A stretch of DNA of 64,000 nucleotides, taken from the NCBI GenBank assembly GCA_963727485.1, contig CAVSGM010000002.1, forward strand, positions 1,248,001-1,312,000, in the 5' to 3' direction. The notes under the pieces were generated by a model. The model had not been told where the DNA came from, did not search any database, and worked only from the letters and a program-made list of their open reading frames with translations. Both the position numbers and the translations under genes were made by a program. Origin of the DNA: an uncultured delta proteobacterium. Lineage in GTDB: Bacteria; Myxococcota; Myxococcia; SLRQ01. Shown here piece by piece: positions 44,376 to 64,000 of this stretch (its first letter is position 1; every line of letters starts with the position of its first letter).

Positions 44376-44438
44376 TTCTCGCTCCCCCCATCGGCCGGCA
44401 CGCCGCCGGCTTCAATGATCTCGATCAGCGCTCCGCGA

Positions 44439-44756
44439 TCAGAGGCAGCTCTTGGGCTTGGGCACCCCGGCGATCTTCGCGGCGAGCTTCCCGGGCCCCT
44501 TGGGGAAGAGCTGGTAGAGCGCCTTCATCCCCACCCCCGAGTGCATGGAGATCCGCCGCAGCCCCGGGGCCTCGCCCTTCTCGGCGAAGTCGGCGCGCAT
44601 GAAGTCGATGACCTTCCAGTGGTCGTCGGTGAGCGCGCCGATCCCGACCTCCTGGGCGATGGCCTTCGCCACCTCCGGGGTCCAGGCATCGGCGGAGAGC
44701 AGGAAGCCCTCGTCGTTGAGCTCCACCTGCTTGCCGGCGTAGGTCTGGGTACTCAT
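44439..44756 (-). CDS. TusE/DsrC-family sulfur carrier with a single C-terminal Cys
   Basis: DEGFL...W, LTDDHWKVI, LYQLFPKGP..AAKIAGVPKPKSCL. Confidence 0.9.
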   Translation of the reverse strand: MSTQTYAGKQVELNDEGFLLSADAWTPEVAKAIAQEVGIGALTDDHWKVIDFMRADFAEKGEAPGLRRISMHSGVGMKALYQLFPKGPGKLAAKIAGVPKPKSCL

Positions 44757-44777
44757 CTCGTTCTCCTCTCGTCGCCC

Positions 44778-46025: not shown

Positions 46026-46074
46026 GGCCCATCCCCCTTGCGCGGCCGCCCGCCGCGCGCTGCACCGAGGAGGA

Positions 46075-46090
46075 TGCGAGGGGTGTGCCA
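46075..46090 (-). promoter_or_regulatory. sigma54 promoter of sqr-tusE-dsrE
   Basis: TGGCACACCCCTCGCA, exact GG-N10-GC spacing, 50 nt upstream of the sqr ATG. Confidence 0.65.
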
Positions 46091-46237
46091 CGGGCCGGCG
46101 CGCGCAGGTGGCTGCAATCGCCCGGGTTTCCGTCGGCGCGCCCGGCGGGCCCTCGCAACCGCGGCGTCGGCCGCGCCGGGGTGCGCAGATCGTGCGATCG
46201 GTGCAGGGATCGCGTGGGGGTGGGCCCCCCGGCGCGG

Positions 46238-46858
46238 CTAGCGCTCGACCCGGCGGGGCGCGGGCCGGGCCCGGCGCTGGCGGAAGGCCTCGTCCCGGGC
46301 CTCCTCCTCGATGGCGTCGGTGATGGCCCGGATCTCGGCGGCGAGGTCGGGGATCACCACCTGCTCCAGGGCGCCCAGGCGCCGCGCGGTGCGGGCGAGG
46401 CCCTCCCGGAGCCGGGCCAGCCCGGTGCGCGCCTCGGCGAGGCGCACCAGGTCCGGCAGCGCGGCGGCGAAGGCGGCCCCGGCGCGGTCGAGGCGGGCGC
46501 TGGTCCCCGCCGGGGCGTAGGCGGGGACGAACGGCGGCACCGTCACCGCCAGCCGCGGCAGGGACACGCCCACCAGCCCCACCCGCTGGCGGCGCACCGT
46601 CACCGCGGGGGGCTGGGCCAGGGCGGCGGCATCCACCGCGGCGCCCCCGAGCTCCACCCGGGCCTCGGCGAGGCGGGCCCGGGCCTCGGCCAGGGCCCCC
46701 GCCGCCTTGGCCTCCAGGGCCCGCGCCTCCTCCCGGCGCTCGCGGATCGCCCGGAGGAGGACCTCGCGCTTGCGGTCGAGGAGCGCGTGGCCCCGGCGCG
46801 CCGCCCCGACCTGCTCCCGGAGCTGGAGGAGCCGGGAGCGGATCGCCCGGCCGCTCAT
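46238..46858 (-). CDS. A/V-type ATP synthase subunit D
   Basis: ARRGHALLDRKREVL, TARRLGALEQVVIP, EEEARDE. Confidence 0.88.
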   Translation of the reverse strand: MSGRAIRSRLLQLREQVGAARRGHALLDRKREVLLRAIRERREEARALEAKAAGALAEARARLAEARVELGGAAVDAAALAQPPAVTVRRQRVGLVGVSLPRLAVTVPPFVPAYAPAGTSARLDRAGAAFAAALPDLVRLAEARTGLARLREGLARTARRLGALEQVVIPDLAAEIRAITDAIEEEARDEAFRQRRARPAPRRVER

Positions 46859-48393
46859 CGCGGCGCCTCGGCGGCGGACGCCGCCTCCGGTTCCTCGGCC
46901 GCCGCGTCGGGCGCCTCCGCCGCCTCCTCCGGACTCCCGGCCGCCGCCTCGGGCGCCTCGGCCCCCGCCTCCGGACCGCCGGGCGCCGGCTCGGGGCCCT
47001 CCGCCGCCCCCTCTGGACCCCCGCGCCCGTAGCGGGCGAGGATCTCGTCGGGGATCCGCGAGAGCTCCGAGTCGGGGAGCCGGCGGAGCACCGCCCACGC
47101 CCGGTCCAGGGTCTCGTCGATGGACCGGTGCTCGCTGCGGCCCTGGGAGAGGAAGCCCTCCTCGAAGGCGTCGCCGAGCTGGAGGTAGGTGCGCTCGAGG
47201 CCGGAGAGCTCCTCCCGGCCGATGATCGCCTCCAGGGCCCGCGCCCGCTCCACCTGCGCCACCGCCGCGTAGAGCTGCCGGGCCACCGCCGGGTGGTCCC
47301 CCCGGGTGCGGCCCTCGCCGATGCCGTCCTCCATCAGGCGCGAGAGCGACGGCAGCACCATCACCGGCGGGTAGACGCCCCGGCGGTCGAGCTCCCGCCC
47401 CAGGACCACCTGCCCCTCGGTGACGTAGCCGGTGAGGTCGGGGATGGGGTGGGTGAGGTCGCCGGAGGGCAGGGTCACCACCGGCACCAGGGTCAGGGAC
47501 CCCGGGCGGTCGAGGATCCGCCCGGCGCGCTCGAAGATCGACGCCAGGTCCGAGTAGAGGTAGCCGGGGTAGCCCTTGCGGCTGGGCATCTCGCCCCTCG
47601 CCGCGGCCACCTCCCGGAGCGCCTCGCCGTAGCTGGTGATGTCGTGGAGGACCACCAGCACGTGCATCCCCCGGTCGAAGGCGAGGTGCTCGGCGGCGGT
47701 GAGCGCCGTCCGCGGGGTGATGAGGCGCTCGGCGGCGGGATCGTCGGCCAGGTTGAGGAAGAGGATCGACCGGGCGAGCGCCCCGCTGCGGCGCAGGTCC
47801 GCCTCGTAGGCCCGCGCCGTCTCCCGGGGGAGCCCCAGGGCCGCGAACACCACCGCGAAGTCCTCGACCCCGGGGGCCCGCGCCTGGCGGAGGAGCTGCA
47901 TCACCATCGCGTCGTGGGGCAGCCCGCTCTCGGTGAACACCGGGAGCTTCTGGCCCAGCACCAGGCTGTCGAGGGCGTCGATGGCGCTGATGCCGGTCTC
48001 CAGGAAGGCCCGGGGGTAGGCCCGGCGCACCGGGTTGATGGGCGCGCCCTCGATGGGCCTCGCGTCGACGCCCAGCGGCCGCGGCAGCCCGTCCCGGGGA
48101 CGGCCCACCCCGTCGAGGACCCGGCCGAGGAGCTCGGGGCCCACGTCCACGGTCAGGGGCCGGCCGGAGAAGCGCACCCGGGTCCCGCCGAGGTCGAGGC
48201 CCGCGGTCTCGCCGAACACCTCCACCACCGCCCGGTCGCCGGTCACCTGGAGCACCCGGCCGATGCGCACCTCGCCGTCGGCGCCCACCACCTCCACGTG
48301 CTCGTGGTAGCCCGCGCCGGCGACGCCCTCGACGAAGGCCAGCGGGCCCTTGAGCCCGGCGAGGCCCTGGTACTCGAGGCCCGCGGTGGTCAT
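46855..48393 (-). CDS. A/V-type ATP synthase subunit B, with an acidic Ala/Pro/Glu C-terminal tail
   Basis: GQKLPVF, ERLITPRTALTAAE, YLYSDLASIFERAG, THPIPDLTGYVTEGQ, LPSLSRLM. Confidence 0.95.
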   Translation of the reverse strand: MTTAGLEYQGLAGLKGPLAFVEGVAGAGYHEHVEVVGADGEVRIGRVLQVTGDRAVVEVFGETAGLDLGGTRVRFSGRPLTVDVGPELLGRVLDGVGRPRDGLPRPLGVDARPIEGAPINPVRRAYPRAFLETGISAIDALDSLVLGQKLPVFTESGLPHDAMVMQLLRQARAPGVEDFAVVFAALGLPRETARAYEADLRRSGALARSILFLNLADDPAAERLITPRTALTAAEHLAFDRGMHVLVVLHDITSYGEALREVAAARGEMPSRKGYPGYLYSDLASIFERAGRILDRPGSLTLVPVVTLPSGDLTHPIPDLTGYVTEGQVVLGRELDRRGVYPPVMVLPSLSRLMEDGIGEGRTRGDHPAVARQLYAAVAQVERARALEAIIGREELSGLERTYLQLGDAFEEGFLSQGRSEHRSIDETLDRAWAVLRRLPDSELSRIPDEILARYGRGGPEGAAEGPEPAPGGPEAGAEAPEAAAGSPEEAAEAPDAAAEEPEAASAAEAPR

Positions 48394-50216
48394 GGGCGGA
48401 CCTCGGCGGGGGGCGGCGCGGCCCCGGGGATGGTCGCGGTCACCTCGGCGTCGATCTGCCGGGTCAACGCCTGGAAGCCCGACAGGGCGTCGTCCCCGAG
48501 GGTCGACCGCGCCCGCTCGATCTTCGCCACCACCGCAAGGGCCGCCAGATCGGTGGCCATCGCCCCGGCCTCGATGGCCGCCATCCCCGCGTCGTGGAAG
48601 TGGAGGAGGAGCTCGAGGAGGGCGAGCTGCCGGGCCGGGGCGCAGTAGCTGTCCACCGGGTCGTAGGCGTTCTGGCGGAGGAAGCCCTCGTCGAAGAGGG
48701 CGGCGAGGCGCAGCAGGAAGCGCTGGCGATCGGGGAGCCCCTCGGCGCCGATGAGCCGGGCGGTGCGCTCCACCTGGGCCGCCGCCTCGAGGAGCGAGAG
48801 CGCCTGCTGGCGGCGCGCCGGCCAGCTCGGCCCCACCTCGCCGACCCACCAGTCCACCAGGGCGTCGGGGATCTGGGCGTAGCTGGCGGTGATCGACACC
48901 GCCGGGAACACCCGCGCCTCGGCCCGGGCCTTGTCCAGGGTCCAGAAGGTCGGGGTGAAGGCCTGGGTGTGGCGGGTCACCGGCTCGGTGAGGTCGCCGC
49001 CCGGCGGGGAGATGGCGGAGATGAGGCTCACCGATCCGGTGTCGCCGGCCAGCGTGGTCACCCGCCCGGCGCGCTCGTAGAAGGCGGCCAGCCGGCTCTG
49101 GAGGTAGGGCGGGTAGCCCTCCTCGGCGGGCATCTCCTCGAGGCGCCCGCTGATCTCCCGCAGCGCCTCGGCCCACCTCGAGGTGGAGTCGGAGAGCATC
49201 GCCACCCGGTAGCCCATGTCCCGGAAGTACTCGGCGAGGGTGACCCCGGTGTAGATCGACGCCTCCCGGGCCGAGACCGGCATGTTGGAGGTGTTGGCCA
49301 CGAGGACGGTGCGCTCGGCCAGCGGCCTCCCGGTGCGGGGATCGGCGAGCCCGGGGAGCTCCCGGAGCATCCTCGTCATCTCGTTGCCGCGCTCGCCGCA
49401 GCCCACGAAGACGATGACGTCGGCGTCGGCCCACTTCACCAGCTGGTGCTGGAGCACGGTCTTGCCGGTGCCGAAGCCCCCCGGGAGCCCGGCGGCGCCG
49501 CCCTCGGGGATGGGGAAGAAGGTGTCGAGGACCCGCTGGCCGGTGACCAGGGGCAGCCCCGGGCGCAGGTGCGCGGCCACCGGGCGGGCGCGCCGGACCC
49601 GCCAGGTCTGGCGCATGGGGACCGCCACCTCGCCGCCGGGGCCGGCGCCGTCGTCGCCCTCCGCGCCGACGCGCAGGCGGATGACCGGCTCGGCGACGGT
49701 GTAGGGCCCGGCCGCGGCCACGAAGGTCACCGTCCCCGAGAGCCCCGGGGGGAGGAGCACCTTGTGGGTCAGGGTCTCGGTCTCGGGGACGGTGCCGAGG
49801 ACGGCGCCGCCTTCGAGGCGATCCCCCACGGCGACCGCCGGGGTGAACGCCCAGCGCCGCTCGGGATCGAGGGCCGCCACGTGGCTCCCCCGGCCCAGCA
49901 GGTCCCCCTCGAGGGCGGCGAGGCGCGCCAGGGGCCGCTGCACCCCGTCGTAGACCGTGCCCAGGAGCCCCGGCCCCAGCTCCACGGTCAGCGGCTCGCC
50001 GGTGGCCACGAAGGGCGCCCCCGGGGCGAGGCCGCTGGTGTCCTCGTAGATCTGGGCGACGACCTGGTCGCCCTCGAGGGCGATGGCCTCCCCGAGGAGC
50101 GAGTCCTCGCCCACCCGCACCACCTCGCCGAGGGCCACCGCCCGGGTACAGCGGGCCCGGACCACGGCGCCGTTGACCTCGACCACGGTGCCGGCGATGT
50201 CGGCCCTGGGGCTCAT
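48390..50216 (-). CDS. A/V-type ATP synthase catalytic subunit A
   Basis: Walker A PGGFGTGKT, GCGERGNEM, NTSNMPV.AREASIYTG, DSTSRWAEALREISGRLEEMP. Confidence 0.96.
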   Translation of the reverse strand: MSPRADIAGTVVEVNGAVVRARCTRAVALGEVVRVGEDSLLGEAIALEGDQVVAQIYEDTSGLAPGAPFVATGEPLTVELGPGLLGTVYDGVQRPLARLAALEGDLLGRGSHVAALDPERRWAFTPAVAVGDRLEGGAVLGTVPETETLTHKVLLPPGLSGTVTFVAAAGPYTVAEPVIRLRVGAEGDDGAGPGGEVAVPMRQTWRVRRARPVAAHLRPGLPLVTGQRVLDTFFPIPEGGAAGLPGGFGTGKTVLQHQLVKWADADVIVFVGCGERGNEMTRMLRELPGLADPRTGRPLAERTVLVANTSNMPVSAREASIYTGVTLAEYFRDMGYRVAMLSDSTSRWAEALREISGRLEEMPAEEGYPPYLQSRLAAFYERAGRVTTLAGDTGSVSLISAISPPGGDLTEPVTRHTQAFTPTFWTLDKARAEARVFPAVSITASYAQIPDALVDWWVGEVGPSWPARRQQALSLLEAAAQVERTARLIGAEGLPDRQRFLLRLAALFDEGFLRQNAYDPVDSYCAPARQLALLELLLHFHDAGMAAIEAGAMATDLAALAVVAKIERARSTLGDDALSGFQALTRQIDAEVTATIPGAAPPPAEVRP

Positions 50217-50809
50217 CGGGCGTAGCGCTCCACCAGGGCGGTGCGCCACACCGGCTCCAGGCGCTTGGCCCGGGCGGCGAAGGTGTTGTCGAAGGTGATG
50301 CGCCCCCCGGCGACCCGGACCCGGCACCCGCCGTCGGCCTCGCCCTCGACGATGCGCACCGCCCGCTTCCCGGTGGCGGCGGCGAGGCGGGCGGCGAAGG
50401 CGGCGTCGAGGGCGGCGGCGTCCTCCTCTCGGACCACCACCTCGGCCTCGTCCCCGGGCAGCCGCGGGAGGGCCTCGGCGGCGAGGCGGAAGATGCGCTC
50501 GGGGGCCGGGTCCAGCATCCCCGCGAGGCGCGCCCAGCCGGCGGCGACGGCGCGCTCGATCCACGCCGCCCGGGCCTCGATCCCCTCGCGGACGTCGAGC
50601 CAGTCCTCGTGGGCGAGGCGCTCGGTGGCGGCGCGGTGGGCGGCCTCGAGGCGGGCCCGCCTCACCTCGCCGCCGGCCCCGGGCGCCGGGACCGCGGCGT
50701 CGGCCCGGGCCAGCGCCGCGGCGGCCTCGGCCTCGACGGCGGCGACCTTCGCCTCCGCCTCGGCGCCGATGGCGGCGAGCACCGCGGGCACGCTCCCCAG
50801 CTCCCTCAC
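50213..50809 (-). CDS. A/V-type ATP synthase subunit E
   Basis: Coiled-coil N-terminus, GGCRV...ITFDNTF; position upstream of subunit A. Confidence 0.75.
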   Translation of the reverse strand: MRELGSVPAVLAAIGAEAEAKVAAVEAEAAAALARADAAVPAPGAGGEVRRARLEAAHRAATERLAHEDWLDVREGIEARAAWIERAVAAGWARLAGMLDPAPERIFRLAAEALPRLPGDEAEVVVREEDAAALDAAFAARLAAATGKRAVRIVEGEADGGCRVRVAGGRITFDNTFAARAKRLEPVWRTALVERYAR

Positions 50810-51066
50810 GGCACCCCCCCGGCCCCGAGCTCGGGGAGCACCAGGAGCACCGGGCCCTCGGCGCGGTCGAGGAGGGCGGCGAGGCGCGCGGGGACGAGCG
50901 CCGCCACCGGGGCGGAGATCAGCACCAGGGCGAGGTCCTCGGCCTCGGCCTCCACCTGGTCGAACGCGGCCTCGGCCTCGGCGCGGGTCCGGCACACCGT
51001 CCCCTCGACCCCGGCGAGGCGGCCGCCGCGGACGTCCCCCTCGGTGCCGACGATGCGCGCCCTCAT
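50806..51066 (-). CDS. A/V-type ATP synthase subunit F
   Basis: IVG..D..G.RLAGVEG...LVLIS...P.LLVLP. Confidence 0.8.
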   Translation of the reverse strand: MRARIVGTEGDVRGGRLAGVEGTVCRTRAEAEAAFDQVEAEAEDLALVLISAPVAALVPARLAALLDRAEGPVLLVLPELGAGGVP

Positions 51067-51436
51067 CCGACCCGCCCCAGGATCATGATGGCGATGATGA
51101 GGCCGTAGATGGCGATGCCCTCGGCCAGCCCCACGAAGACGATGGCCCGGCCCGCGGTCTCGGGCTTCTCGGCCACCGCCCCCATGGCGGCGCCGCCGAC
51201 CACCGCCACCGCGTAGGCGGCGCCCACCGCCGAGAGCCCGGCGACCAGGGCCGCGGCGAGAAACGCCCACTTCACCACCTCGGGGTTCGAGGTGACGCTC
51301 GCCGCCGCGCCGCCGCGGCCGCCGTGGGCGCGGCGTGCTGGGCCAGGGCCGGGAAGGCCACCACGACCAGCACCAGCGGCGAGAGCACCACCAGCGCGAG
51401 GAGCGCGAGGCGAACGGGATGGACGGGCCGGGTCAT
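51063..51436 (-). CDS. A/V-type ATP synthase subunit K/c (proteolipid), with a frameshift near 51300-51325
   Basis: GAVAEKPE..GRAIVFVGLAEGIAIYGL; ATG overlapping the subunit I stop gives 374 nt, so one base appears missing. Confidence 0.85.
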
Positions 51437-53430
51437 GGCGATTCCCCCTTGGGCGGAGCTTCGCGGCGCAGGGCCAGGGGCCGATAGGCCTCGCCCCCGC
51501 CGTGGAAGAACTTGCTGAAGAACTCGTAGTACTCGAGGCGCAGCACCTGGACCGACACCGTGAGGCCCTCGAGGAAGATGACCACCGCGTTGCCGATGAT
51601 CAGCACCAGGACCTTCAGGGGCCCGGAGAAGGGCACGTTCGCCAGGGTGTCGGCGACGGCGAAGAGGGCGATGAAGATCCCGGCGTGGACCGCGGCGAAG
51701 GCGGCGATGCGCACGAAGCTCACGGTGTTGGCGAGGAAGCCGAAGAGGGTGTCGACGATCTCCACCGACCCCTCCAGGGCCCGGAGCCACAGGGGGCCGG
51801 CGACCTTCTCCGGGCGGCGGCGGTCGCGGTCGAGGTGGCGGACCAACAGCGGCCGGAGCAGGAGCAGCGCCACCGGCACCGAGAGCAGCGCCACCAGCGC
51901 CCAGGGCGGCAGGGTGAGGGTCCCGGGCATCATCGCCCGCACCACCAGGAGCAGCCCCACCCAGTAGAGGGTGGCGCCGAGGAGGCCGTGGGGGCCGAAG
52001 AGGGCGCTCGCCTTCTCCCCCCGGCGCCAGGTGTTGATCACCCCGAGGATGAGGCCGCCGCTGACCAGCACCACCCCGAAGATCACCGCGATGATCATGA
52101 AGCTGTTGAGGTCGCGCAGCGGCTCCATCCAGATCACCGGGAGCAGCCCCTCGATGCCGAACAAGCTCCCGTAGAGGAAGCCGAAGACCACCGAGGCCGC
52201 CGCCGCCTCCATGAGCAGGATCCCGTAGTCGAGGAAGCGCGGGAAGTAGCGGAAGAGGAGGAAGCCGGCGCTGAAGATCACCGCCCCGTGGCCCACGTCC
52301 CCGAACATCAGGCCGAACATGATGAGGAAGGTGAGGGCGAAGAACGCCGTGGGCTCCATCTCCTGGTAGCTGGGGGTGCCGTAGAGGCGGACCAGGCGCT
52401 GGAAGGGCCGGAGCAGGAGGGGGTTTCGGTGGAGGATGGGGACCTTGAGGACGCCGGAGGTGACCTCGGGGAGCTGCTCGGGGGCCTCGAGATCGACCAC
52501 CGCGCGCCCCTCGGTGGCCCGCTCGAGGAGGCGGCGCATCCGCTCGGCGCTCTCCTCGGGGATCCAGCCGGAGATCACGGTGAACCGCCCGGAGGTGGCG
52601 AAGAGGGTCTGGGCCTGGAGCAGGAGCACCGCGGTGTCGCCCCGGGCGAGGAGGCTGGTGAGGGTGTCGGCGTGGGCGGCGCGCTGGGACGCGAGGGCGT
52701 CGGCGGCGTCGGCGGCCTCTTGCTCGGCGGCCTCGAGGCGACCCTTCAGGACCTGGGGATCCCAGCCGGTGGCGGCGTCGGGGAGCGGCACCGTCTCGAA
52801 GGGGACCACCCGCAACGCGTCGTCGAGGCGGGCCTGCCCCGAGGTGGGGACGCAGACCGCGGCCAGCACCGGGGGGCCGGCCTCGTCGAGGGGGAGGAGG
52901 GCGAAGGGCGCCGGCTGGAGGAGCGAGGCGAGGCCCTCGAGGGCCTCCTCCTCGGCGAGGCCGAGGCGCACGGTGGTGAAGGCGAGGCCCGCGAGGCGCG
53001 CCGGGTCGAGGCGCACCGAGGCCAGGCGCCGGGCCTGGGTGAGGAGGGTCCGGGTGCGGTCCATGGTCTCCCGGGCGTCGCTGTGGCGGTGCCAGGCGGC
53101 GTCCACCGCGTGCTCGATGGGCGCGAGCACCGCCTCCAGGCGATCGCGCTCGGCGGCGAGGTCGGCGGCGGCCTGGGGCTCGAGGCGCCCCACCGGCTCC
53201 GGGGGCGGCACCGAGAGGCGGGCGGCCACCTGGCGCAGGCGCCGGGTGAGGTCGCGGAAGGCGGCGAGGAGCTCCCGGGTCCCCGGGGGCGCGGCGTCGC
53301 CGGTGACCCGGCCGTGGGCGATGTCGACCAGGTGGAGGAGGCCCTCGTCGGCGATGGAGCGCGCCGCCCGGGTGGCGTCGGCGTTGGGGACCTGCACCCG
53401 CATGTGGATCATGGGGACCGGGCGGAACAT
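51433..53430 (-). CDS. A/V-type ATP synthase subunit I/a
   Basis: GWIP, FGLMFGDVGHG, GFLYGS.FG, NTVSFVRIAAF, LRLEYYEFFSKFF. Confidence 0.95.
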   Translation of the reverse strand: MFRPVPMIHMRVQVPNADATRAARSIADEGLLHLVDIAHGRVTGDAAPPGTRELLAAFRDLTRRLRQVAARLSVPPPEPVGRLEPQAAADLAAERDRLEAVLAPIEHAVDAAWHRHSDARETMDRTRTLLTQARRLASVRLDPARLAGLAFTTVRLGLAEEEALEGLASLLQPAPFALLPLDEAGPPVLAAVCVPTSGQARLDDALRVVPFETVPLPDAATGWDPQVLKGRLEAAEQEAADAADALASQRAAHADTLTSLLARGDTAVLLLQAQTLFATSGRFTVISGWIPEESAERMRRLLERATEGRAVVDLEAPEQLPEVTSGVLKVPILHRNPLLLRPFQRLVRLYGTPSYQEMEPTAFFALTFLIMFGLMFGDVGHGAVIFSAGFLLFRYFPRFLDYGILLMEAAAASVVFGFLYGSLFGIEGLLPVIWMEPLRDLNSFMIIAVIFGVVLVSGGLILGVINTWRRGEKASALFGPHGLLGATLYWVGLLLVVRAMMPGTLTLPPWALVALLSVPVALLLLRPLLVRHLDRDRRRPEKVAGPLWLRALEGSVEIVDTLFGFLANTVSFVRIAAFAAVHAGIFIALFAVADTLANVPFSGPLKVLVLIIGNAVVIFLEGLTVSVQVLRLEYYEFFSKFFHGGGEAYRPLALRREAPPKGESP

Positions 53431-53434
53431 CGGA

Positions 53435-54442
53435 TCAGGCCTCCATCGCCGAGGCGGCGAGGACGTCCTCGACCACCGGGGTGACCGCCGCGTCGCCCCC
53501 GGCCTCGGCGATCGCGGTCAGCCCCCGGACCTCGGCGGCGGCGAGGAGGGCGAAGGCGACGGGGGGCCCGAGGGTGAAGCCGCCGACCCGCAGGGCCCGG
53601 AGGCAGGCGGCCCGGCGCAGCTCGCGGCGGGCGGCGAGGAGGTCGTCGAAGGTGCCGACGCCCGCGGCGTCCCGGAGGATCGCCCGGGGGACCTTGGGGG
53701 CCAGGAGCCCCGGTTGCCCTGGGTGCTCGGCGAGGGCGCGCAGGGCCGCGGGGCGGACGCGCTCGGGGAGGTAGGCCAGCGCCCCCACCGCCGCCTCGGG
53801 GCCGAGGCCGTGGCGGCGGGCCCGGGCGAGGACCTCGAGATCCCGGTCGACCACCGCCTCGAGGGCGAGGCCGGCGGCGAGGTGCTCGGCGGCGGGGAGC
53901 GCCCGGGCGGCGTCGACCACCCGCCGGCCCGCCGCCTGGTCGAAGGCCAGCGCCGCCGCCGGGAGGTCCGCCTCGTGGGTGCGCCACGCGGTCCTGGCCA
54001 CCTCGCCCCAGGGGGTCCGCGACACCGCGTCGCGGACCTCGTGGAGCGCGCCGAGCCCCTGGAAGTGCTCGGGGTGGAGGGTGGCCGCCGGGCCGAGGTC
54101 CCGGAAGTCCGGGCGCCAGCGGGGCGCCGGGATCCGCCGGGCCACCGCCCGCCACCCCAGCTTGAGGTTCTCCACCTCCTCGAGGCCGGCGAGGGCCTGG
54201 AAGAGGGCGGCGGCGTCGGGGTAGAGGCGGGCGAGCTTGTGGAGCCGGGCGCCGAGGCGGGCGTCGAGGATCCGCCTGGTGGCGGCGGCGTCGGCGGCGT
54301 CGAGGCCCAGGGCCTCGAAGGCGCTCGCCACGCCCCGCGCGCCCCCGGCGCCCCGGAGCACCAGGGCGGTCTCCGGGGCGACCAGCCGCCCCCGCATCGC
54401 CCGGACCCGGGCCAGGGCGTAGGCGCGCCAGCCGAGGCTCAA
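53435..54442 (-). CDS. A/V-type ATP synthase subunit C/d
   Basis: YALARVRAMRGRL N-terminus, EVENLK, EVRGLT; TTG start coupled to the upstream stop. Confidence 0.75.
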   Translation of the reverse strand: MSLGWRAYALARVRAMRGRLVAPETALVLRGAGGARGVASAFEALGLDAADAAATRRILDARLGARLHKLARLYPDAAALFQALAGLEEVENLKLGWRAVARRIPAPRWRPDFRDLGPAATLHPEHFQGLGALHEVRDAVSRTPWGEVARTAWRTHEADLPAAALAFDQAAGRRVVDAARALPAAEHLAAGLALEAVVDRDLEVLARARRHGLGPEAAVGALAYLPERVRPAALRALAEHPGQPGLLAPKVPRAILRDAAGVGTFDDLLAARRELRRAACLRALRVGGFTLGPPVAFALLAAAEVRGLTAIAEAGGDAAVTPVVEDVLAASAMEA

Positions 54443-54804
54443 GGCTCGCCCTCCCCGGCCGGGGCGACCCGCGCCTCGGCCCCGTCGCCGGCCTCGAGGC
54501 CGAGGACGATGGCGGCGAAGCGCGCCGCGGCGTCGTCGAGGACCGCCTCGGCGGCGGCCTCCCGCTCGGCGAGACGCAGCTTCCGGGCGGCCCGCTTCTG
54601 CGCCGCCGCCTGCTCCCCCGCGGCCTCGATCGCCGCCACCTCGTCCTCGAGGTCGGTGGCGGCCTGGTCGTCAGCGCGGGCCCGTGCCGCCTCCCGCTCG
54701 ACCTGGGCCTGCGCCAGACGCGACCGGGCCTGGGCCTCGGCCGCCGCCAGGCGACTGCGCCACACCTCGTCCTCGGAGAGGATTGCCTCGAGCTCGGACG
54801 TCAT
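54439..54804 (-). CDS. Probable A/V-type ATP synthase peripheral-stalk subunit G/H
   Basis: Ala/Glu-rich coiled coil of 121 aa at the head of the ATPase genes. Confidence 0.6.
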   Translation of the reverse strand: MTSELEAILSEDEVWRSRLAAAEAQARSRLAQAQVEREAARARADDQAATDLEDEVAAIEAAGEQAAAQKRAARKLRLAEREAAAEAVLDDAAARFAAIVLGLEAGDGAEARVAPAGEGEP

Positions 54805-54807
54805 GGC

Positions 54808-55521
54808 TCATCCCGTCTGCCCCGCCGCCACCGGCAGGGCCTCCGGCCGTCTCCCCCGGAGCCAGTCTAGCCACGCCTCGAGCCCCTCGCCGGTCTTCGC
54901 CGAGATCCGGATCACCTTGGGATCGGGCATCACCGTGGCGAGCCCCTGCTCGAGGGCCTCGAGGTCGGTGCCCAGGTAGGGCACCAGGTCGATCTTGGTC
55001 AGGAGCACCAGGTCGGCCTTCTGGAACATCACCGGGTACTTCACCGGCTTGTCCTCGCCCTCGGTCACCGAGAGGGCGACCACGTTGGCGTGCTGCCCCA
55101 GATCGTAGATCGCCGGGCACACCAGGTTGCCCACGTTCTCGATGAAGAACAGGTCGGTGCCCTCGAGGGGCAGGTCGTGGAGGGCGTGGTGGACCATCTC
55201 CGCGTCGAGGTGGCACGCCGAGCCGGTGGTGATCGAGCGCGCGGTGATCCCCGCGGCCTCGAGGCGGCTGGCGTCGTGGTCGGTGGCGAGGTCCCCGCTG
55301 ACCCCCGAGAGGCGCCACTGGCCGGCCAGCGCCTTCGCCGTCGCCTCCAGGACCGCGGTCTTCCCGGCGCCGGGGGAGCCCATGAGGTTGAGGGCCAGCA
55401 CCCCGTGCCCCTGGAAGTGGGCCCGGTTGTGGGCCGCGGTGCGGTCGTTGACCGCGAGGATCCGCTCGTGGACCTCCACCGGCACCAGCTCGGTGTCGCC
55501 ACAGCCACAGGTGTCACACAT
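54808..55521 (-). CDS. hypB: Hydrogenase nickel-insertion GTPase
   Basis: MCDTCGC, GSPGAGKT, CHLDA, ENVGNLVCP, TEGEDKP.KYP, TKID. Confidence 0.95.
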   Translation of the reverse strand: MCDTCGCGDTELVPVEVHERILAVNDRTAAHNRAHFQGHGVLALNLMGSPGAGKTAVLEATAKALAGQWRLSGVSGDLATDHDASRLEAAGITARSITTGSACHLDAEMVHHALHDLPLEGTDLFFIENVGNLVCPAIYDLGQHANVVALSVTEGEDKPVKYPVMFQKADLVLLTKIDLVPYLGTDLEALEQGLATVMPDPKVIRISAKTGEGLEAWLDWLRGRRPEALPVAAGQTG

Positions 55522-55864
55522 GATCGGGTGCCTCCATCTCGATGCGATCGAGGAAGATGTCGTCGCCCTCGGCGAGGCTCGCCGGGATCGCGCACTCGGG
55601 GCAGCGCAGGATCTGGCCCCGGGGAATTGCCAGATGGCATCTCGGGCACTGCCACTTGGCAGGCACCCGGTGCACCACCAGCTCGGCCCCCCCGCAGAGG
55701 CCGCCCACCTTGAAGGTGTCGAAGGCGGTGGTCAGCAGATCGATCTCCACCCCGCTGACCTCGCCGATGCGCACCTCGAGGCGCCGCACCTCGGTGGCCC
55801 CGACCCGCTGGGCCTCGAGGGTCACCCGCTCCATCAGCGAGGCGACGATGCTGTACTCGTGCAT
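55514..55864 (-). CDS. hypA: Hydrogenase nickel metallochaperone
   Basis: MHEYSI, CPRC...CPEC. Confidence 0.95.
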   Translation of the reverse strand: MHEYSIVASLMERVTLEAQRVGATEVRRLEVRIGEVSGVEIDLLTTAFDTFKVGGLCGGAELVVHRVPAKWQCPRCHLAIPRGQILRCPECAIPASLAEGDDIFLDRIEMEAPDHV

Positions 55865-56711
55865 CTACTTCCCCTCGAAGGTGGGGGCGCGCTTGGCGAA
55901 GAAGGCGTCGAGGCCCTCGGCGAAGTCGGCGGAGTCGGCGGAGTGCCACAGGGCCTCGAGCTCCCGGTCGAGGTGGACGTCGAGGCGCTCGCCGCCCGCC
56001 GACTCGTTCATCAGCCGCTTGGCGGCGGCGTAGGCGGCGGTGGGCCCGGCGGCGAGGCGGCGGGCCAGCGCCAGGCTCTCCGCCTCGAACTCGGCGTCGG
56101 AGAACACGGCGCTCACCAGGCCCATCTCCCGGGCCTCCCGGGCGGAGAGCCTCGGGTTGAGCAACGCGAGATCGAGGGCCCGGCGCAGCCCCACCAGCTT
56201 GGGGAGGAAGAAGGTGTTCGACTCGGCGCCGGAGAGCCCGGTCTTGAAGTAGGCGTACTCGAAGACCGAGCGCTCGCTGGCCACCACCAGGTCGCAGCAC
56301 AGGGCGAGGCCCATGCCCCCGGCGGCGCAGGCCCCGTCCACCGCGGCGATGAACGGCTTGGGGGCCCGGCGGATCTCGGAGATGGTGGCGTGGAGGTACT
56401 CGAGGATTCTGCTTGAACACCTCGCCGTAGCCCTCGGGGGTCTGGTGCGCCTCGGGGTGGAGGTAGCCGAGGTCGCCCGAGTCGCCGCCGCCGCGGATGT
56501 ACTTGAGGTCGGCGCCGCTGCAGAACACGCCCCCGGTGCCCCGGAGCACCACGCAGCGCACCTCCCGGTCCCGGGCGAAGGCGAGGCCCGCGTGGCGCAG
56601 CTCCCGGGCGGTGTCGCAGTCGAAGCTGTTGAGCCGATCGCGCCGGTCGATGGTGATGACCCCCACCGCGCCGTCCCGGGTCATGCGGATGTGGTCCATC
56701 CTGGCGGGCAT
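55865..56711 (-). CDS. Enoyl-CoA hydratase/isomerase (crotonase-fold) protein, with a frameshift near 56410
   Basis: RLNSF, FCSGADLK, PKPFIAAVDGACAAGGMGLALCCD, FAEGLDAFFAKRAPTFEG; ATG overlaps the hypE stop and the TAG abuts the hypA ATG. Confidence 0.85.
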
Positions 56712-57749
56712 CAGCAGATCCTCGGCAGGGGCTCGCCCTCGGGCTCGGTGAGGATCCGGCGGCCGAAGCCGGTGTCGAGGATCACCTGGCCCACGTGGGT
56801 CTGAAGGCAGGTGCCGACGATGGCCGCCTGCCGGCCCAGCGGGTGCTCGCGCATCGCCGCCAGCACCTTCTCGGCGGCCTCGGGCCGCACCCCGAACACC
56901 GCCTTGCCCTCGTTGGCCACGTGCAGCGGATCGATGCCCAGGATCTCCGCCACCGCCCGGACCTCCTCGGTGGTGGGCACCGCCCGCTCGTCGAGGAGGA
57001 TGCCCACGCCGCTCTTCTCCCCCATCTCGTGGAGGGCGCTGGAGAGCCCGCCCCGGGTGGGGTCCTTGAGGGCCACGATGTCCGCGCCCCCGGCGGCGAG
57101 CGCCAGGCGCACCAGGTCGTTGATGGGCGCCACGTCGCTCTCCAGATGCCCGTCGAGGTCGAGGTTCCCCCGCGCCGCCATCACCGCGAAGCCGTGGTCG
57201 CCCACGGTGCCGGTGACCAGGATCCGGTCGCCGGGCTTCAGGCCGCTGTCGGGGACCACCCGGTCGGCAAAGGCGACGCCGGCGGTGTTGATCACCAGGC
57301 CGTCGAGCTCGCCCTTGCCCATGACCTTGGTGTCGCCGGTGAGGATGGGCGCCCGCGCCGCCCGGGAGGTCTCGCGCATCGACACGTGGACCCGGGTCGA
57401 GGGTCTCGGTGTCGAAGCCCTCCTCGACGATGACCGCGCAGGTCAGCCCCAGCACCTCGGTGGCGCCCATCATCGCCAGGTCGTTCACCGTCCCCGACAC
57501 CGCCAGGCGCCCGATGTCGCCGCCGGGGAAGAAGAGCGGGTGGATGACGTGGGAGTCGGTGGTGATCACCAGGTAGCGATCGCCCACGCGGATCGCCGCG
57601 CCGTCGTCCATGGCGAGCGGCCCGATGCCGTCGACCTGAAGGTCCTGCATGTCCTCGAGGAAGACCTCCTCGATGAGGGCGCGCATGTGCCGCCCGCCGG
57701 CGCCGTACTTCATGGTCAGGCGCTTGTCCACGAAGGGTCTCGGTCTCAT
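56711..57749 (-). CDS. hypE: Carbamoyl dehydratase, with a frameshift near 57390
   Basis: TTDSHV, GGDIGRLAVSGTVNDLAMMGA, TGDTKV, DPTRGG, ANEGK, C-terminal LPRIC. Confidence 0.93.
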
Positions 57750-58900
57750 GACAGCGCCTCCAGGTCCGGGTGGCCGCCGTACAGCTGCCAGATGCGGCAG
57801 GTGCCCTCGCTACTGACCATGCAGGCGCCCACCGGGGCGTCGGGGGTGCAGGCCTTGCCGAAGAGGGCGCAGCCTTCGGGCGAGGCGATCCCCGCCATGA
57901 TGTCGCCGCAGATGCACTGCTCCACCAGCTTGGGGGCGGCGAAGTCCCAGAGCCCCTTCACGTCGATGTCGAAGCGCTTGCGGGCGTCGGCCCACTCGAA
58001 GGCGTCGCGCAGGCGCAGGTTCCCGTTGGGGACGTGGGCGATGCCGCGCCAGCGCCCGCCGGCGGGGCGGAAGACCTGCCACAGGGTCCTCTGGGCCTCG
58101 AGGTTCCCGGCGCGGTTGACGCACCGGGGGAAGAGGTTCTCCACCGCGGGCCGGCCCTCCTTGATGAGGGTCACCAGGCGCACCAGGGCGGCGAGGATGT
58201 CCAGGGGCTCGAAGCCGGCGACGACCACCGGCAGCCCGTGGCGCTTCACGAAGGGCTCGAAGACCCCGCAGCCGGTGATGGTGGCGGCGTGCCCGGCGGC
58301 GAGGAAGCCCTCGATGCGGCTGCCCGGCATCTCGCAGACGATCTCCATCACCGGCGGGATGTACTTGTGGGCCGAGAGGATGGAGAAGTTCTGCGGGGGA
58401 TCGGCGAGGAGCACCGCCGCGGTGGCCACCGCGGTGGTCTCGAAGCCGGTGGCGAAGAAGCACGATCTCCTCGTCGGTCGTTCGCGCCAGCTCCACCGCC
58501 TGGGCCACGCGAGTAGACCACGTCGATCTTCGCCCCCTCGGCCTGGGCCTGGGCGAGCGACATGCTGGTCCCCGGGCACCTGGAGCATGTCGCCATAGGT
58601 GGCCAGGCGCACCCCGGAGCGGGCCAGCGCCACCCCCTCGTCGACCTCGGGGACGTCGGTGATGCACACCGGGCAGCCCGGGCCCATGACCACGTCGAGG
58701 GCCTTGGGGAAGGCCGAGCGCAGCCCATAGCGGGCGATGGCCTGCTCGTGGCTGCCGCACACGTGCATCACGCTCACCGGGTCGCGGCCGATGGCCTCGG
58801 TCTCCCGGACCAGCTGGTCGGCCAGGGCCTTGGCCTTGCCCGGGTCCCGGAACTTCAGCTCCCGGACCTGGCGGCCGAGGACGGGCTCAGCGGGGGCCAC
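57746..58900 (-). CDS. hypD: Hydrogenase maturation scaffold; three mutually compensating frameshifts at about 58460-58575
   Basis: MHVCGSH, GPGCPVC, FFATGFETT, GACMVSSEGTC. Confidence 0.93.
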   Translation of the reverse strand: MAPAEPVLGRQVRELKFRDPGKAKALADQLVRETEAIGRDPVSVMHVCGSHEQAIARYGLRSAFPKALDVVMGPGCPVCITDVPEVDEGVALARSGVRLATYGDMLQVPGDQHVARPGPGRGGEDRRGLLAWPRRWSWRERPTRRSCFFATGFETTAVATAAVLLADPPQNFSILSAHKYIPPVMEIVCEMPGSRIEGFLAAGHAATITGCGVFEPFVKRHGLPVVVAGFEPLDILAALVRLVTLIKEGRPAVENLFPRCVNRAGNLEAQRTLWQVFRPAGGRWRGIAHVPNGNLRLRDAFEWADARKRFDIDVKGLWDFAAPKLVEQCICGDIMAGIASPEGCALFGKACTPDAPVGACMVSSEGTCRIWQLYGGHPDLEALS

Positions 58901-59216
58901 GGTCGCCTCCCGGGTCGGTGCCGGTCGCCGCCGGGCCGGCCGCGCCACCGGCGTCCATCTCCCCCCGGACGTCGGAGGCCATCAGGTCCCCCTCGGGCCC
59001 GTGGGCCAGCAGCTCCTCGTAGAGGGCGAGGGTCTCGCCGATCTCCTCCTCGGGGATCCGGCGGATGGCGAAGCCCACGTGGTTGAGGACGTAGTCGCCC
59101 TCGCTCACCGGGGCGTCGACCACGTCGAGGCGCACCCGCTTGGTGACCCCGAAGAAGTCGACGGTGGCATTCAGCCCGTCGACGGCGAGCACCTTTCCGG
59201 GAACCCCGAGACACAT
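58887..59216 (-). CDS. hypC: Hydrogenase maturation chaperone
   Basis: MCLGVPG...GDYVLNHVGFA; AAGGAG RBS. Confidence 0.93.
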   Translation of the reverse strand: MCLGVPGKVLAVDGLNATVDFFGVTKRVRLDVVDAPVSEGDYVLNHVGFAIRRIPEEEIGETLALYEELLAHGPEGDLMASDVRGEMDAGGAAGPAATGTDPGGDRGPR

Positions 59217-59220
59217 GGCC

Positions 59221-61528
59221 TCACTCCTTGGTTGGGGGGCGCGGCGCACGGCCGCGTCGGCGACGAGCACCTGGCCGAGGGCGAGGCCGCCGTCGCCGGG
59301 CGGCACCTCCCCGTGGCGAAACACGTCGAGCCCATCTCCCTGCAGGGACCGGGCCACCGAGACCGCAAGACGCGGGTTCTGGAAGCAGCCGCCGGTGAGG
59401 ACCACCGGCCGGGCCCCGTGGCGATCCGCCGCCGCCTCCACCAGCTCCACGGTGGCGTGGGCGAGCGTCTCGTGGAACCGCGCCGAGACCACCGCCGCGC
59501 CCCGGCCGGCGAGGAGGTCCGACACCGCCTGGCGCACCAGGGGCCGCAGATCGACGCGTCCAGGGGTCGGTGGTCGAGATCGAGGGCGAAGAGGTAGCGC
59601 CCGGTCTCGGTGGGGTCGGCGACCTGGTCCCAGGCCAGCGCCAGCTGCCCCTCGTAGCCGGCCCGGGGGCGCACCAGGCCCAGGGCCGCCAGGGCGTCGA
59701 AGTAGCGCCCCACCCCGTGGGCCTCGCACGGTGTAGGCGCCGTCGGCGAGCACCTGGCGCACCGCCTGGACGGTCCGGGGCGGGAGCCGGTCGAAGAGGG
59801 CGAGCGCGTCGCAGGGGCGGGGCCCCGTCGTAGGCGTCGTCGAGGAGCGAGAGGGCCAGGCGCCAGGGCTCGCGGATCGCCTGGTCGCCCCCGGCGAGAC
59901 GGATGGGGCGGAAGGTCGCCAGGCGCCGGTAGCCGTCGGCGGACGGCGAGGAGGAGCTCGCCGCCCCAGGCGGTGCCGTCGTGCCCCGGCGCCGGTGCCG
60001 TCGTAGGCGACCCCGAGGACCTCGCCGTCCAGGCGGTGCTCGGCCATGCAGCTCATCACGTGGGCGTGGTGGTGCTGCACCGGCACCCGCACGCCGCCCT
60101 GCGAGGCCCTCGGCGTAGCGGGTGGAGAGGTAGCCGGGGTGCAGATCGTGGGCGACCACCTCGGGCTCGACGCTCGAGGAAGTGCGCCAGGCGGCCGATC
60201 TGGTCCTGGAAGCTCTCGTAGGCCTCCAGCGAGTCGAGGTCGCCGATGTGGGGCCCGAGGATGGCCTGGTCCCCGGCGGCGAGGCAGAAGGTGTTCTTCA
60301 GCTGCGCCGCCCCACCGCGAGGATGGGCCGGGCCACCGGCCGGGCGAGGCGGATGGGCGAGCGGCACGTAGCCCCGGGAGCGGCGCATCACCGTGGGCGT
60401 CCCCCCGATGACCATGGCCACCGAGTCGTCGGCCCGGGCGGCGATCTCCCGGTCGTGGAGGAGGAAGAGGTCGACCACCGGGGCGAGCTCGGTGAGGGCG
60501 TCGTCGTCCCGGAACACCGTGGGCGCGCCTGTGAGGTTCCCGGAGGTCATCACCAGGGGCCGGCCCACCTCCCGGAGCAGCAGGTGGTGGAGCGGGGTGT
60601 AGGGGAGCATCAGGCCCACCCGGGCGCTGTCCGGGGCCACGCTCGGGGCCAGCCCCGCGTCCGCGCGGGCGCGGCAGAGGACGATGGGGCGCGCCGGGCT
60701 CTCGAGGAGGGCGCGCTCTTCGGGGTCGAGCTCGGCGAGGGCCTCGGCGTCGGCCACCGTCGCCACCATCACCGCGAAGGGCTTCTCCTCCCGGTGCTTG
60801 CGCAGGCGCAGGCTCCTGACCACCGCCTCGTCGGTGGCGTCGCAGGCGAGGTGGTAGCCCCCGAGGCCCTTGATCCCGACGATCCGGCCGGCCTCCAGCG
60901 CCCGGGCCGCGGTCCACAGCGGCTCGGCCCAGACCACCGGGGCCCCGGCGGCCGAGCGCACCTCCAGGGTGGGGCCGCAGGTGGGGCAGGCGTTGGGCTG
61001 GGCGTGGAACCGCCGGCTCGCCGGGTCCTCGTACTCGGCCCGGCAGGCGGGGCACATCTCGAAGGGCGCCATGGTGGTCGCCGGCCGGTCGTAGGGGACC
61101 CCCAGCGCGATGGTGAACCTGGGCCCGCAGTCGGTGCAGTTGGTGAAGGCGTAGCCGTGGCGCCGGTCCGCGGGATCGCCGACCTCGGCGAGGCAGGTGG
61201 GGCAGGTGGCGAGGTCCGGGGGGATGGCGGCGCGGACGGCGCCCCCGTGCTCGCTGTGCTCGATGACGAAGGCGGGGCGGGCCTCGACGGGGATGGGCCG
61301 CCAGGAGATCTCGGAGATCCGCGCCGCCGGCGGGGCCTCGGACATCAGGTGCCGCAGGAGCCGGTCGAGGATCCCCGCCTCGCCAAAGGCGTCGATGGTG
61401 ACCCCGGCGGCGCCGTTCTTCACCGCCCCGGTGACCCCGAGGTCCTGGGCCAGGCGCCACACCCAGGGGCGCAGGCCCACGCCCTGGACGGTGCCCCGCA
61501 CCTGGATCCTTCGGCCCTCGGCGCTCAC
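59221..61528 (-). CDS. hypF: Carbamoyltransferase with many apparent frameshifts in the 3' half
   Basis: GTVQGVG, CPTC, FTNCTDCGPR, RRFHAQPNAC, KGLGGYHL, QHHHAH, GRYFDA, PPGDGGLALGQ, spread over three frames. Confidence 0.9.
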
Positions 61529-61935
61529 GACCCGGCCTCGGGGGCCCCGGGCCCGTCGGCGGCGGCCAACGAGAGGACGTAGGCGGCGACGTCCTGGCGC
61601 TCGGCCTCGGTGAGGGTGCCCTCCCAGGCGCCCATGGCGGTCCCCGGGATCCCGTGGGTGACCACCTTCAGCACGTGGGCGGGACGCGCCTGGTCGCGCC
61701 AGGCGCCCGAGGTGAAGTCCGGGGGCCGGTGCTTGAACCCGGCGTGGCGCGCCCCGTGGCCGTCGCCGGCCGGGCCGTGGCACAGCGCGCAGTGCGCCTG
61801 GAACACCACGCGGCCCCGGGCCAGGGCGCCGGGATCGCCCACGGGCACCCGGGCGGCGGGGCCCGCGGGCGACCTACAGCCCGAAGGCGCGGTCGACATG
61901 ATCAGGCAGATCGTCGTGAGGAGGAGGCGCATCAT
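61525..61935 (-). CDS. Monoheme c-type cytochrome (possibly exported or a lipoprotein)
   Basis: CALCH heme motif, distal GIPGTAMGAW; the start may be 61935, 61932 or 61899. Confidence 0.8.
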   Translation of the reverse strand: MMRLLLTTICLIMSTAPSGCRSPAGPAARVPVGDPGALARGRVVFQAHCALCHGPAGDGHGARHAGFKHRPPDFTSGAWRDQARPAHVLKVVTHGIPGTAMGAWEGTLTEAERQDVAAYVLSLAAADGPGAPEAGS

Positions 61936-62419: not shown

Positions 62420-63195
62420 GCTTCGAGGTCCTTTTTCTTCATCCACTTCCAACCGCTGAAGATGGAGTCGAGGGTGCCGTTGCGCTCCACCACCGCGGTG
62501 AGGATGGCGCTGTAGAGGTGGTGGACGAAGAAGCCGATGAGCAGCCACATCGACACGTGGTGCCACCACCTCGCCGAGGCGGCGCCCCCGAAGAGGTCGA
62601 CGAAGGGGCGGAAGATCGACATCACCGAGCCCGGCTCGATGATCGCCGCGTAGAGGCCGAGCCCGCTGACGATCATCACCAGGTAGATGACGAACACCAC
62701 CGAGTAGGCGGCGCCGGCCACCGGGTTGTGCCCGGGGGTCGATGGCGGCTTGCGGCGCAGGAAGAGGTAGAAGGCCAGCGTCTGCCCGAAGGCCTTCCAC
62801 CGCTTGCGGGTGGTGGGGATGAACATCGTCCACCGGGCGTTCCGGCTCCCGATGAACATCCACAGGATCCGGGAGAGCACCGCCAGGGTGAAGGCGATGG
62901 CGAAGTAGAAGTGGACGACCTTCATGGTCCCCATCACGAAGTGGAACCGCGCCTCCCCGGGCACCACGATATACGGGTGCCCGATGTAGATCCCGGTGAT
63001 CGAGAGCCCGAGGATCGAGAGGGCGACGGTCCAGTGGGTGACCCGGACCACCACGTCCCAGGCGTAGACCCGGACCAGCTGGTCCTCGGCGGGCGACACC
63101 GCAGGCGGCGGCTTGGTCTCCACCGCGGGACCCTTGGCCGACGCCGTCTCGGGCGCCGCCGCGGGGCCGCGGGTGGCGATGTCTGGAGTGGTCAT
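62416..63195 (-). CDS. [NiFe]-hydrogenase b-type cytochrome subunit (HyaC-like)
   Basis: VRVTHW, VHFY, GHNPVA, WHH...HHLY, SIFSG. Confidence 0.92.
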   Translation of the reverse strand: MTTPDIATRGPAAAPETASAKGPAVETKPPPAVSPAEDQLVRVYAWDVVVRVTHWTVALSILGLSITGIYIGHPYIVVPGEARFHFVMGTMKVVHFYFAIAFTLAVLSRILWMFIGSRNARWTMFIPTTRKRWKAFGQTLAFYLFLRRKPPSTPGHNPVAGAAYSVVFVIYLVMIVSGLGLYAAIIEPGSVMSIFRPFVDLFGGAASARWWHHVSMWLLIGFFVHHLYSAILTAVVERNGTLDSIFSGWKWMKKKDLEA

Positions 63196-64000
63196 TGCAC
63201 CTTGACCTCCACGACCTGCTGGCCGTCGGGATCGAGCACGTGCACGCCACAGGCCATGCACGGGTCGAAGGAGTGGACGGTGCGCAGGATCTCCAGGGGC
63301 TGGTCGGCCTTGGCCACCGGGGTGCCGATGAGCGCGGCCTCGTAGGGGCCCATCTGGCCCTTGGCGTCCCGGGGCCCGGCGTTCCAGGTGCTGGGGACCA
63401 CCGCCTGGTAGCTCTTGATCTTGCCGTCCTCGATCTTCACCCAGTGGCCCAGCGCCCCGCGCGGCGCCTCGTGGAAGCCGGCGCCCTGGGCCACCTTCGG
63501 CCAGTCCTTGGGCTCCCACTTGGTGTTGTCGGCGATGCGCAGGTCACCCTTGCCCATGTTGGCGGTCAGGGCGTCGAGCCAGTCGCCCATCTTGTTGGCC
63601 AGCACCAGGGTCTCGACCCCGCGGGCGGCCACCCGCCCCAGGGTGGAGAACAGGGCCTCGGGGCCCACGCCCAGGTGCCCGAGCGCCATGTCGACGCCGG
63701 CCTTCACCTCCTTGTGGCCCCGGCCGTAGGCGACCAGCATCCGCGCCAGGGGCCCGACCTCCATGGGCGCCTCCTCGTAGCGCGGCGACTTGAGCCAGGA
63801 GTACTTGCCGTCGGTGTTCAGCCGCTCGAAGGGCGGCTGGGGGCCGGTGTAGTTGGGCTTGGTCTCGCCCTCGTAGGGGTTGAGGCCCACCGCGTCGCCC
63901 TTGGCGTAGTCGTACCAGGAGTGGCTGACGTACTCGCTGATCTTCGCCGGATCGACGTCCTCGACCTTGGCGAGGTTCTTGTTCCGGATGATCCCCGAGG
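63192..64000 (-). CDS. Group 1 [NiFe]-hydrogenase large subunit, C-terminal part (5' end outside the window)
   Basis: YSWLKSPRY, EVGPLAR, EAPRGALGHW, YQAVVPSTWN, SFDPCMACGVH plus a cleavable tail. Confidence 0.95.
   Translation of the reverse strand, partial: SGIIRNKNLAKVEDVDPAKISEYVSHSWYDYAKGDAVGLNPYEGETKPNYTGPQPPFERLNTDGKYSWLKSPRYEEAPMEVGPLARMLVAYGRGHKEVKAGVDMALGHLGVGPEALFSTLGRVAARGVETLVLANKMGDWLDALTANMGKGDLRIADNTKWEPKDWPKVAQGAGFHEAPRGALGHWVKIEDGKIKSYQAVVPSTWNAGPRDAKGQMGPYEAALIGTPVAKADQPLEILRTVHSFDPCMACGVHVLDPDGQQVVEVKVQ

Follow-up and report, generated by a model that had tools for sequence, protein, structure and literature searches.

A hyp-linked, free-standing crotonase as a candidate formyl-CoA decarbonylase for [NiFe]-hydrogenase maturation

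What is a crotonase-fold gene doing inside an operon for [NiFe]-hydrogenase maturation? On the minus strand of the window (the whole 64-kb stretch of DNA that was analysed), genes for a [NiFe]-hydrogenase large subunit, cytochrome b, and cytochrome c are followed by hypF, hypC, hypD, hypE, the crotonase gene, hypA, and hypB (Table 1). A preliminary description of this DNA had placed the crotonase between hypE and hypA, with its ATG overlapping the hypE TGA and its TAG abutting the hypA ATG, and these junctions were verified in the sequence: the start codon and the hypE stop have one base in common (TGATG, 56713-56709, minus strand), and the hypA ATG follows directly after the TAG (TAGATG, 55867-55862, minus strand). 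The same slot is occupied in C. necator by hypX, which lies directly after hypE. HypX is a fusion of an N-terminal N10-formyl-THF formyltransferase and a crotonase, whereas the protein family described here is about 280 amino acids long and not fused. We propose that this family acts as a formyl-CoA decarbonylase that stands on its own and provides the CO ligand of [NiFe]-hydrogenase, and we give this reading a probability of roughly two in three. It draws on the fold, the operon position, the family-wide linkage, a Tyr/Glu alignment, and a formyltransferase neighbour in a quarter of the loci.

Table 1. Features of the hyp operon and of the crotonase gene, in window positions
Feature	Position	Strand	Remark
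Crotonase-fold gene, stand-alone	55865..56711	-	about 281 aa (or 277 aa, starting at second ATG, 56699); apparently one base too many
Frameshift site in crotonase gene	56405..56410	-	probably assembly error
Oxyanion-hole motif 1, FCSGADL	56505..56525	-	S-G-A-D-L invariant in 40 homologues
Oxyanion-hole motif 2, AAGGM	56312..56326	-	no Glu at first hydratase position
Tyr at position of HypX Tyr439 (C. necator) / Tyr416 (A. aeolicus)	56249..56251	-	sequence alignment
Glu aligned with HypX Glu449 / Glu426	56222..56224	-	sequence alignment; Ala precedes, at PaaG catalytic Asp position
hypB	54808..55521	-	NCBIfam
hypA	55514..55864	-	NCBIfam; start abuts crotonase stop
hypE	56711..57749	-	NCBIfam; apparent frameshift near 57398; stop overlaps crotonase start
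hypD	57746..58900	-	NCBIfam
hypC	58887..59216	-	sequence reading only, MCLGVPG start
hypF	59220..61510 (approximate ends)	-	NCBIfam; broken by apparent frameshifts
Group 1 [NiFe]-hydrogenase large subunit, 3' part	63192..64000	-	small subunit just beyond window

At 847 bases, the crotonase gene is a whole number of codons plus one, and two frames join near 56407. The single frameshift and the absence of a formyltransferase partner from the genome would both fit a decaying remnant, broken after that partner was lost. However, a near-identical contig from run X2 matches 56226-56432 with zero mismatches over 206 bases and has one base fewer at 56407 (one contig, depth 3.6), and a single open frame crosses the match region in 79 of 80 related loci, so the frameshift is probably an assembly error. 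The hypE break is likewise missing in contigs of runs X2 and X3, and hypF and other genes are similarly broken. Because the motifs of the crotonase are intact and intact copies lacking a partner form the majority, decay is an extremely unlikely explanation. The two halves of the gene were analysed separately, and intact homologues were used for folding. Each half matches Pfam ECH_1; the C-terminal half has PaaG (TIGR02280) as its best NCBIfam match, with a score of 141 bits where the cut-off is 345, and is at most 81% identical to intact homologues of 277 to 283 amino acids. Database names for family members are PaaG or enoyl-CoA hydratase.

A search of GTDB genomes with the C-terminal half returned 252 relatives, and the best 80, at 62 to 80% identity, belong to Myxococcota, Gemmatimonadota, Acidobacteriota, Binatota, and Rokubacteria, among other groups. 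Whether the clade lies consistently within hyp operons, a check named in the preliminary description, was answered clearly, since all 80 of these best loci have hyp neighbours. The crotonase has hypE upstream in 78 of them; each of the remaining two starts where its contig does, with hypA and hypB downstream. When divergent members served as seeds in a second scan, which covered 80 loci partly overlapping the first set, hyp genes appeared in 77; two of the others likewise begin with their contig, and the third has a gene for a hydrogenase large subunit 2 kb off. At least 336 confirmed stretches carry the family. A sample of 201 genomes from the window's phylum was also drawn to avoid choosing by gene context, and it contains the family in 11 genomes and hypD in 76. 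In all 11 carriers, which are related rather than independent (the 10 besides the source genome represent five genera), hypD lies no more than about 2.5 kb away and is read from the same strand; the 125 genomes of the sample that lack hypD are all without the family.

The linkage could, in part, be explained by transfer of one block, as the surrounding hyp genes are closely related across phyla, and an ordinary PaaG-like isomerase or hydratase might then simply ride in a mobile hyp operon. Nevertheless, gene order varies among relatives (hypD-crotonase-hypE, hypD-formyltransferase-crotonase-hypE, and hypE-crotonase-hypD), so the link between the crotonase and hyp genes is more than one frozen block, and the gene has been kept through these rearrangements with tight start-stop coupling. 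Moreover, no member away from hydrogenase genes was found wherever the contig gave context, and what recurs among the neighbours of the family loci is hyp and hydrogenase genes, not paa or beta-oxidation genes. With hyp linkage in every one of the best 80 loci and absence from all 125 hypD-less genomes, a passenger gene, which had been left as an option earlier, becomes very unlikely. Clustering of neighbouring open reading frames gave no further recurrent enzyme partner among the first 110 of 125 clusters. Five hyp operons whose HypD is 58 to 62% identical to the window's pass from hypE directly to hypA with no crotonase, and the gene is therefore accessory, as HypX is, and not required by all hyp operons.

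Several further features of these loci deserve mention. At L261 (G233:C1:1939900-1944100), the crotonase is flanked by hypE and by an additional complete copy of hypD, a layout suggestive of joint arrival with a hypD. Archaeal labels occur too: a Methanomassiliicoccales-labelled crotonase lies near a hydrogenase gene (L324:440-1240; the label rests on binning), a Halobacteriales-labelled crotonase and formyltransferase point apart within a hyp cluster (L223:4078-5765), and a Halodesulfurarchaeum-labelled formyltransferase has no crotonase in view (L178:4311-5171). A membrane protein resembling NicO/DsbD_2, which may be a nickel transporter, is often encoded after hypB (L071:3678-4418 and 22 other loci). 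Within the window, a V/A-type ATPase operon (46238-54804, minus strand) begins 3 bases past the hypB stop, and a gene for V-ATPase subunit I is likewise found after hypB or hypE at several related loci from other lineages (L031, L061, L078, L151, L155, and L226). A small single-haem cytochrome c gene (61525-61935, minus strand) stands ahead of hypF and has a homologue in 29 of the 80 related loci, and a cluster at 43839-46091 (minus strand) comprises type III sulfide:quinone reductase, TusE/DsrC-like, and DsrE2 genes.

The hydrogenase itself may be exposed to oxygen. Its small subunit, encoded just beyond the window (G000:C2:1312898-1314043), reads D-C-A-G-N-S-E-S, with Asn replacing one proximal-cluster Cys, and the small subunits of several relatives read D-C-C-G-N, with one Cys extra. 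Replacement of a proximal-cluster Cys of the Asn type is recorded for group 1f, among others, in a passage of PMC5364354. The genome also contains two heme-copper oxidase subunit I matches. An excerpt of PMC12134894 describes the role of HypX as one known under air, and an O2-exposed hydrogenase here would fit that role.

What kind of crotonase is encoded? The closest sequence families are the PaaG isomerase (TIGR02280; E. coli b1394; PDB 4FZW, 3HRX, and 6SLA) and the alternative oxepin-CoA hydrolase (NF046063), which have the same scaffold, and the best-matching solved relatives are PaaG-like as well, all of which speaks for a PaaG-like passenger. The family also nests among PaaG-like proteins in trees, yet no paa genes lie nearby. 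Two intact homologues score 176 and 173 bits against the TIGR02280 cut-off of 345, which they do not reach, and the family falls under every curated cut-off shown. The catalytic Asp136 of PaaG is absent; in the alignment, the family has an Ala where the D136N mutant chain, 6SLA, carries its Asn. A classical enoyl-CoA hydratase has two catalytic glutamates (in the GGGxE and PE motifs). This PaaF/ECH pair was sought by alignment and is missing in the family, with Gly and Tyr occupying the two PaaF positions.

The motifs FCSGADL, AAGGM, and GLSGAES, which the preliminary description had read from the sequence, were all located in the crotonase translation. More telling residues are Tyr150 and Glu159 (numbering of homologue P0008), which are invariant in 40 homologues and present in 80 of 80 loci of the second scan. 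Both BLASTP and hhalign place them on Tyr439 and Glu449 of C. necator HypX, a correspondence at the level of sequence alignment. As related in passages of PMC6802093, Tyr439 and Glu449 are candidate bases for formyl-CoA decarbonylation, and their mutants are HypX-minus. Six of 13 HypX rows (cyanobacteria, streptomycetes, and Microbulbifer) have no one-residue insert and show the same 9-residue Tyr-Glu spacing as the family. As an outsider control, the best 150 profile-search hits were divided into 31 family members and 119 outsiders. Among the outsiders, the PaaG-type Asp is found at position 158 in 105, Glu at 159 in 2, and Tyr at 150 in 89, which indicates that the shift from Asp158 to Glu159 is a signature common to the family and HypX, while the Tyr is inherited background. 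The presence of Glu in 27 of the 31 insiders is partly circular, since the division used Glu-containing motifs; loci found through the formyltransferase (described below) are free of that bias, and Tyr and Glu occur in all 75 of these 77 loci from which the motif was extracted.

The family also has invariant residues of its own, namely, E100, Y101, H103, E108, and E147, which have no HypX counterparts in alignments. These residues are what might be expected of a true maturation factor with other chemistry, one that uses a different acyl-CoA or C1 donor (with CO as the product or not), acts as a formyl-CoA hydrolase, or delivers a formyl group to HypCD with no free CO. Against such a factor stands the Glu position itself, which is common to HypX and not to the PaaG-like relatives, in agreement with a formyl-CoA decarbonylase.

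How close, then, is the family to HypX? HypX's C-terminal domain (C. necator pHG1 WP_011153943.1; A. aeolicus PDB 6J0P) has the same crotonase fold, and the family differs from it in keeping the usual crotonase C-terminal helices and in having, past the first oxyanion motif, an insert specific to the family. P0008 was modelled with AlphaFold (pLDDT 88.5, about 70 over residues 151 to 160), and the model superimposes on HypX 6J0P with a Z score of 30.0, aligning 252 residues at an rmsd of 2.3 A and 19% identity. The same model matches PaaG with a Z score of 28.2 over 213 residues, and its top match is another crotonase, 3p5m (Z 34.0); the modelled fold is thus compatible with a HypX-like role but not diagnostic of it. 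Profile comparison matches the family to HypX with a probability of 99.2. The family profile scores the HypX C-terminal domain at 54 bits and outsiders at about 185 to 230, and the whole sequence is therefore nearer to PaaG-like enzymes.

A phylogeny with HypX C-terminal domains had been proposed as a check in the preliminary description, and its outcome was mixed. In a tree of the shared core (74 rows), HypX C-terminal domains and the family fall together inside the PaaG-like radiation (SH-aLRT 99). A second tree of 53 rows, from which the catalytic segment had been removed and 21 of the 74 rows dropped (8 for long branches and 13 by thinning), again groups them (98/92), with the bootstrap not fully settled. 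Nevertheless, HypX sits on a very long stem, and a tree that places it outside the group of the family plus PaaG is not rejected in an AU test (p 0.415), so grouping was obtained and a separate origin was not rejected. Shared descent of the family and the HypX crotonase domain is suggested by these sequence comparisons. The member nearest to HypX in the tree is the divergent P0135; it and P0131 are singletons without gene context. Twelve longer or divergent family hits were scanned, and no formyltransferase domain was found in them. Also, fused HypX was found in 0 of the 11 phylum-sample carriers, in 0 of 50 carriers searched (at least three genomes are common to both sets), and not in the source genome. 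HypX is rare in the phylum (1 of 76 hypD genomes of the sample, a crotonase-less one), and its absence from carriers therefore says little.

A formyl substrate is indicated by gene neighbourhood. In 20 of 80 loci, exactly those in which more than 500 bases separate hypE from the crotonase, the gap is occupied by a separate gene with the Pfam domain Formyl_trans_N; the N10-formyl-THF formyltransferase family that is fused in HypX is thus a separate adjoining gene in a quarter of the family loci. A search seeded with this formyltransferase returned 88 relatives, and a crotonase is adjacent in 77 of the best 80 (at least 18 of these loci lie on contigs already present in the first crotonase set). 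Of the other three, two are on contigs that end just past the gene, and one is haloarchaeal with no hyp gene or crotonase. Such near-exclusive pairing points to a formyl substrate for the crotonase and argues against other chemistry.

The partner is best matched among NCBIfam models by the PurN GAR transformylase, at 55 to 76 bits against a cut-off of 150. It shares the Asn-x-His and Asp-x-Gly-Pro motifs with PurN and retains the formyl-transfer site's His and Asp, but its N-terminal loop reads S-x-R-A-P-G instead of S-G-x-G-x-N, and, unlike PurN, it has an extra C-terminal AYA-x-A-x-x-EWM helix and is encoded in hyp operons. It matches the HypX N-terminal domain weakly (probability 41) and is without the Fmt-type second subdomain. 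Because the partner is PurN-like and is not a HypX N-terminal domain, the two-gene form is a separate assembly, whatever the origin of the crotonase. The proposal of a split or analogous decarbonylase in the preliminary description therefore stands in its second sense: an analogous module is supported by the Tyr/Glu match and by the separate formyltransferase in 20 of 80 loci, and the gene is not a broken hypX. A predicted complex of formyltransferase, crotonase, and CoA from one relative scored 0.00, but its controls did not fold, and it was given no weight on either side.

The partner is missing, however, from 60 of the 80 loci, and this counts against the decarbonylase reading. The window's locus is among them: the preliminary description had seen no formyltransferase domain here, and on checking, none was found in the 64 kb. 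The source genome likewise has no dedicated formyltransferase, and the only matches in it are a PurN gene that adjoins purM and an Fmt-like gene. Among 48 partner-less genomes searched (of the 60), none has a dedicated formyltransferase elsewhere, as evidenced by a best score of 84 bits against 271 and 339 bits for positive controls. On the family tree, the presence or absence of the partner changes 11 times while the crotonase stays, with at least three changes forced by well-supported branches (three partial loci were left out). Also, HypX holds CoA bound and channels formyl-CoA internally, as described in passages of PMC6802093; a lone domain could not copy this channelling, which counts against HypX-like CO release. 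The inconstant partner favours a maturation factor with other chemistry, which, weighed against the pairing of formyltransferase and crotonase and the Glu position, we regard as unlikely though far from negligible.

If the family is a decarbonylase, the thioester carbonyl of formyl-CoA would bind in the oxyanion hole, and the Glu, helped by the Tyr or by water, would act as the base that takes the formyl proton. CO and CoA would then be released, with CO passing to the iron on HypCD. Where the partner is present, it may make formyl-CoA from N10-formyl-THF; partner-less genomes might, as a guess, obtain formyl-CoA from housekeeping PurN or from a ThDP enzyme resembling 2-hydroxyacyl-CoA lyase. 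In the source genome, which is 93% complete, neither formyl-CoA transferase nor oxalyl-CoA decarboxylase nor formyl-THF synthetase was found at family cut-off.

A lead on the lyase comes from a PRK05858-type ThDP gene in the source genome (G000:C2:163918-165537), which scores 531 of 587 bits on its own family and 379 of 600 on NF058623. The enzyme resembles actinobacterial 2-hydroxyacyl-CoA lyase and is common in the window's class. Lyases of this kind yield formyl-CoA. ThDP lyase-like genes, none at cut-off, occur in 22 of 48 partner-less genomes versus 2 of 32 partner-bearing ones, and in 9 of 11 crotonase-carrying versus 23 of 65 crotonase-less hypD genomes. The pattern tracks taxonomy and none of the genes reaches the cut-off, and the enzyme was therefore not accepted as the formyl-CoA source and is kept as a lead.

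Taken as a whole, the sequence comparisons indicate that the hyp-linked crotonase family is real and undescribed and probably works like the decarbonylase half of HypX without being HypX. No description of a stand-alone or split HypX-like gene was found in the full-text literature among the matches listed, and supplementary gene tables could mention the family. More tentatively, the family could be the surviving free-standing ancestor of the HypX decarbonylase domain, which in such genomes would make the CO ligand from the free cellular pool of formyl-CoA without a dedicated formyltransferase. This possible, if doubtful, scenario would amount to a one-gene third route to CO, spread over phyla from soil and sediment as well as a few archaea.

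The source of CO in E. coli-type anaerobic maturation is not settled by this family. What the family offers is a candidate enzyme that is small and open to direct assay, that is currently annotated as a phenylacetate isomerase, and that is present in hundreds of genomes, largely from uncultured lineages. If active, it could aid the maturation of O2-exposed hydrogenases in foreign hosts, and it would represent a natural separation of the two half-reactions of HypX, with formyl-CoA supplied in trans.
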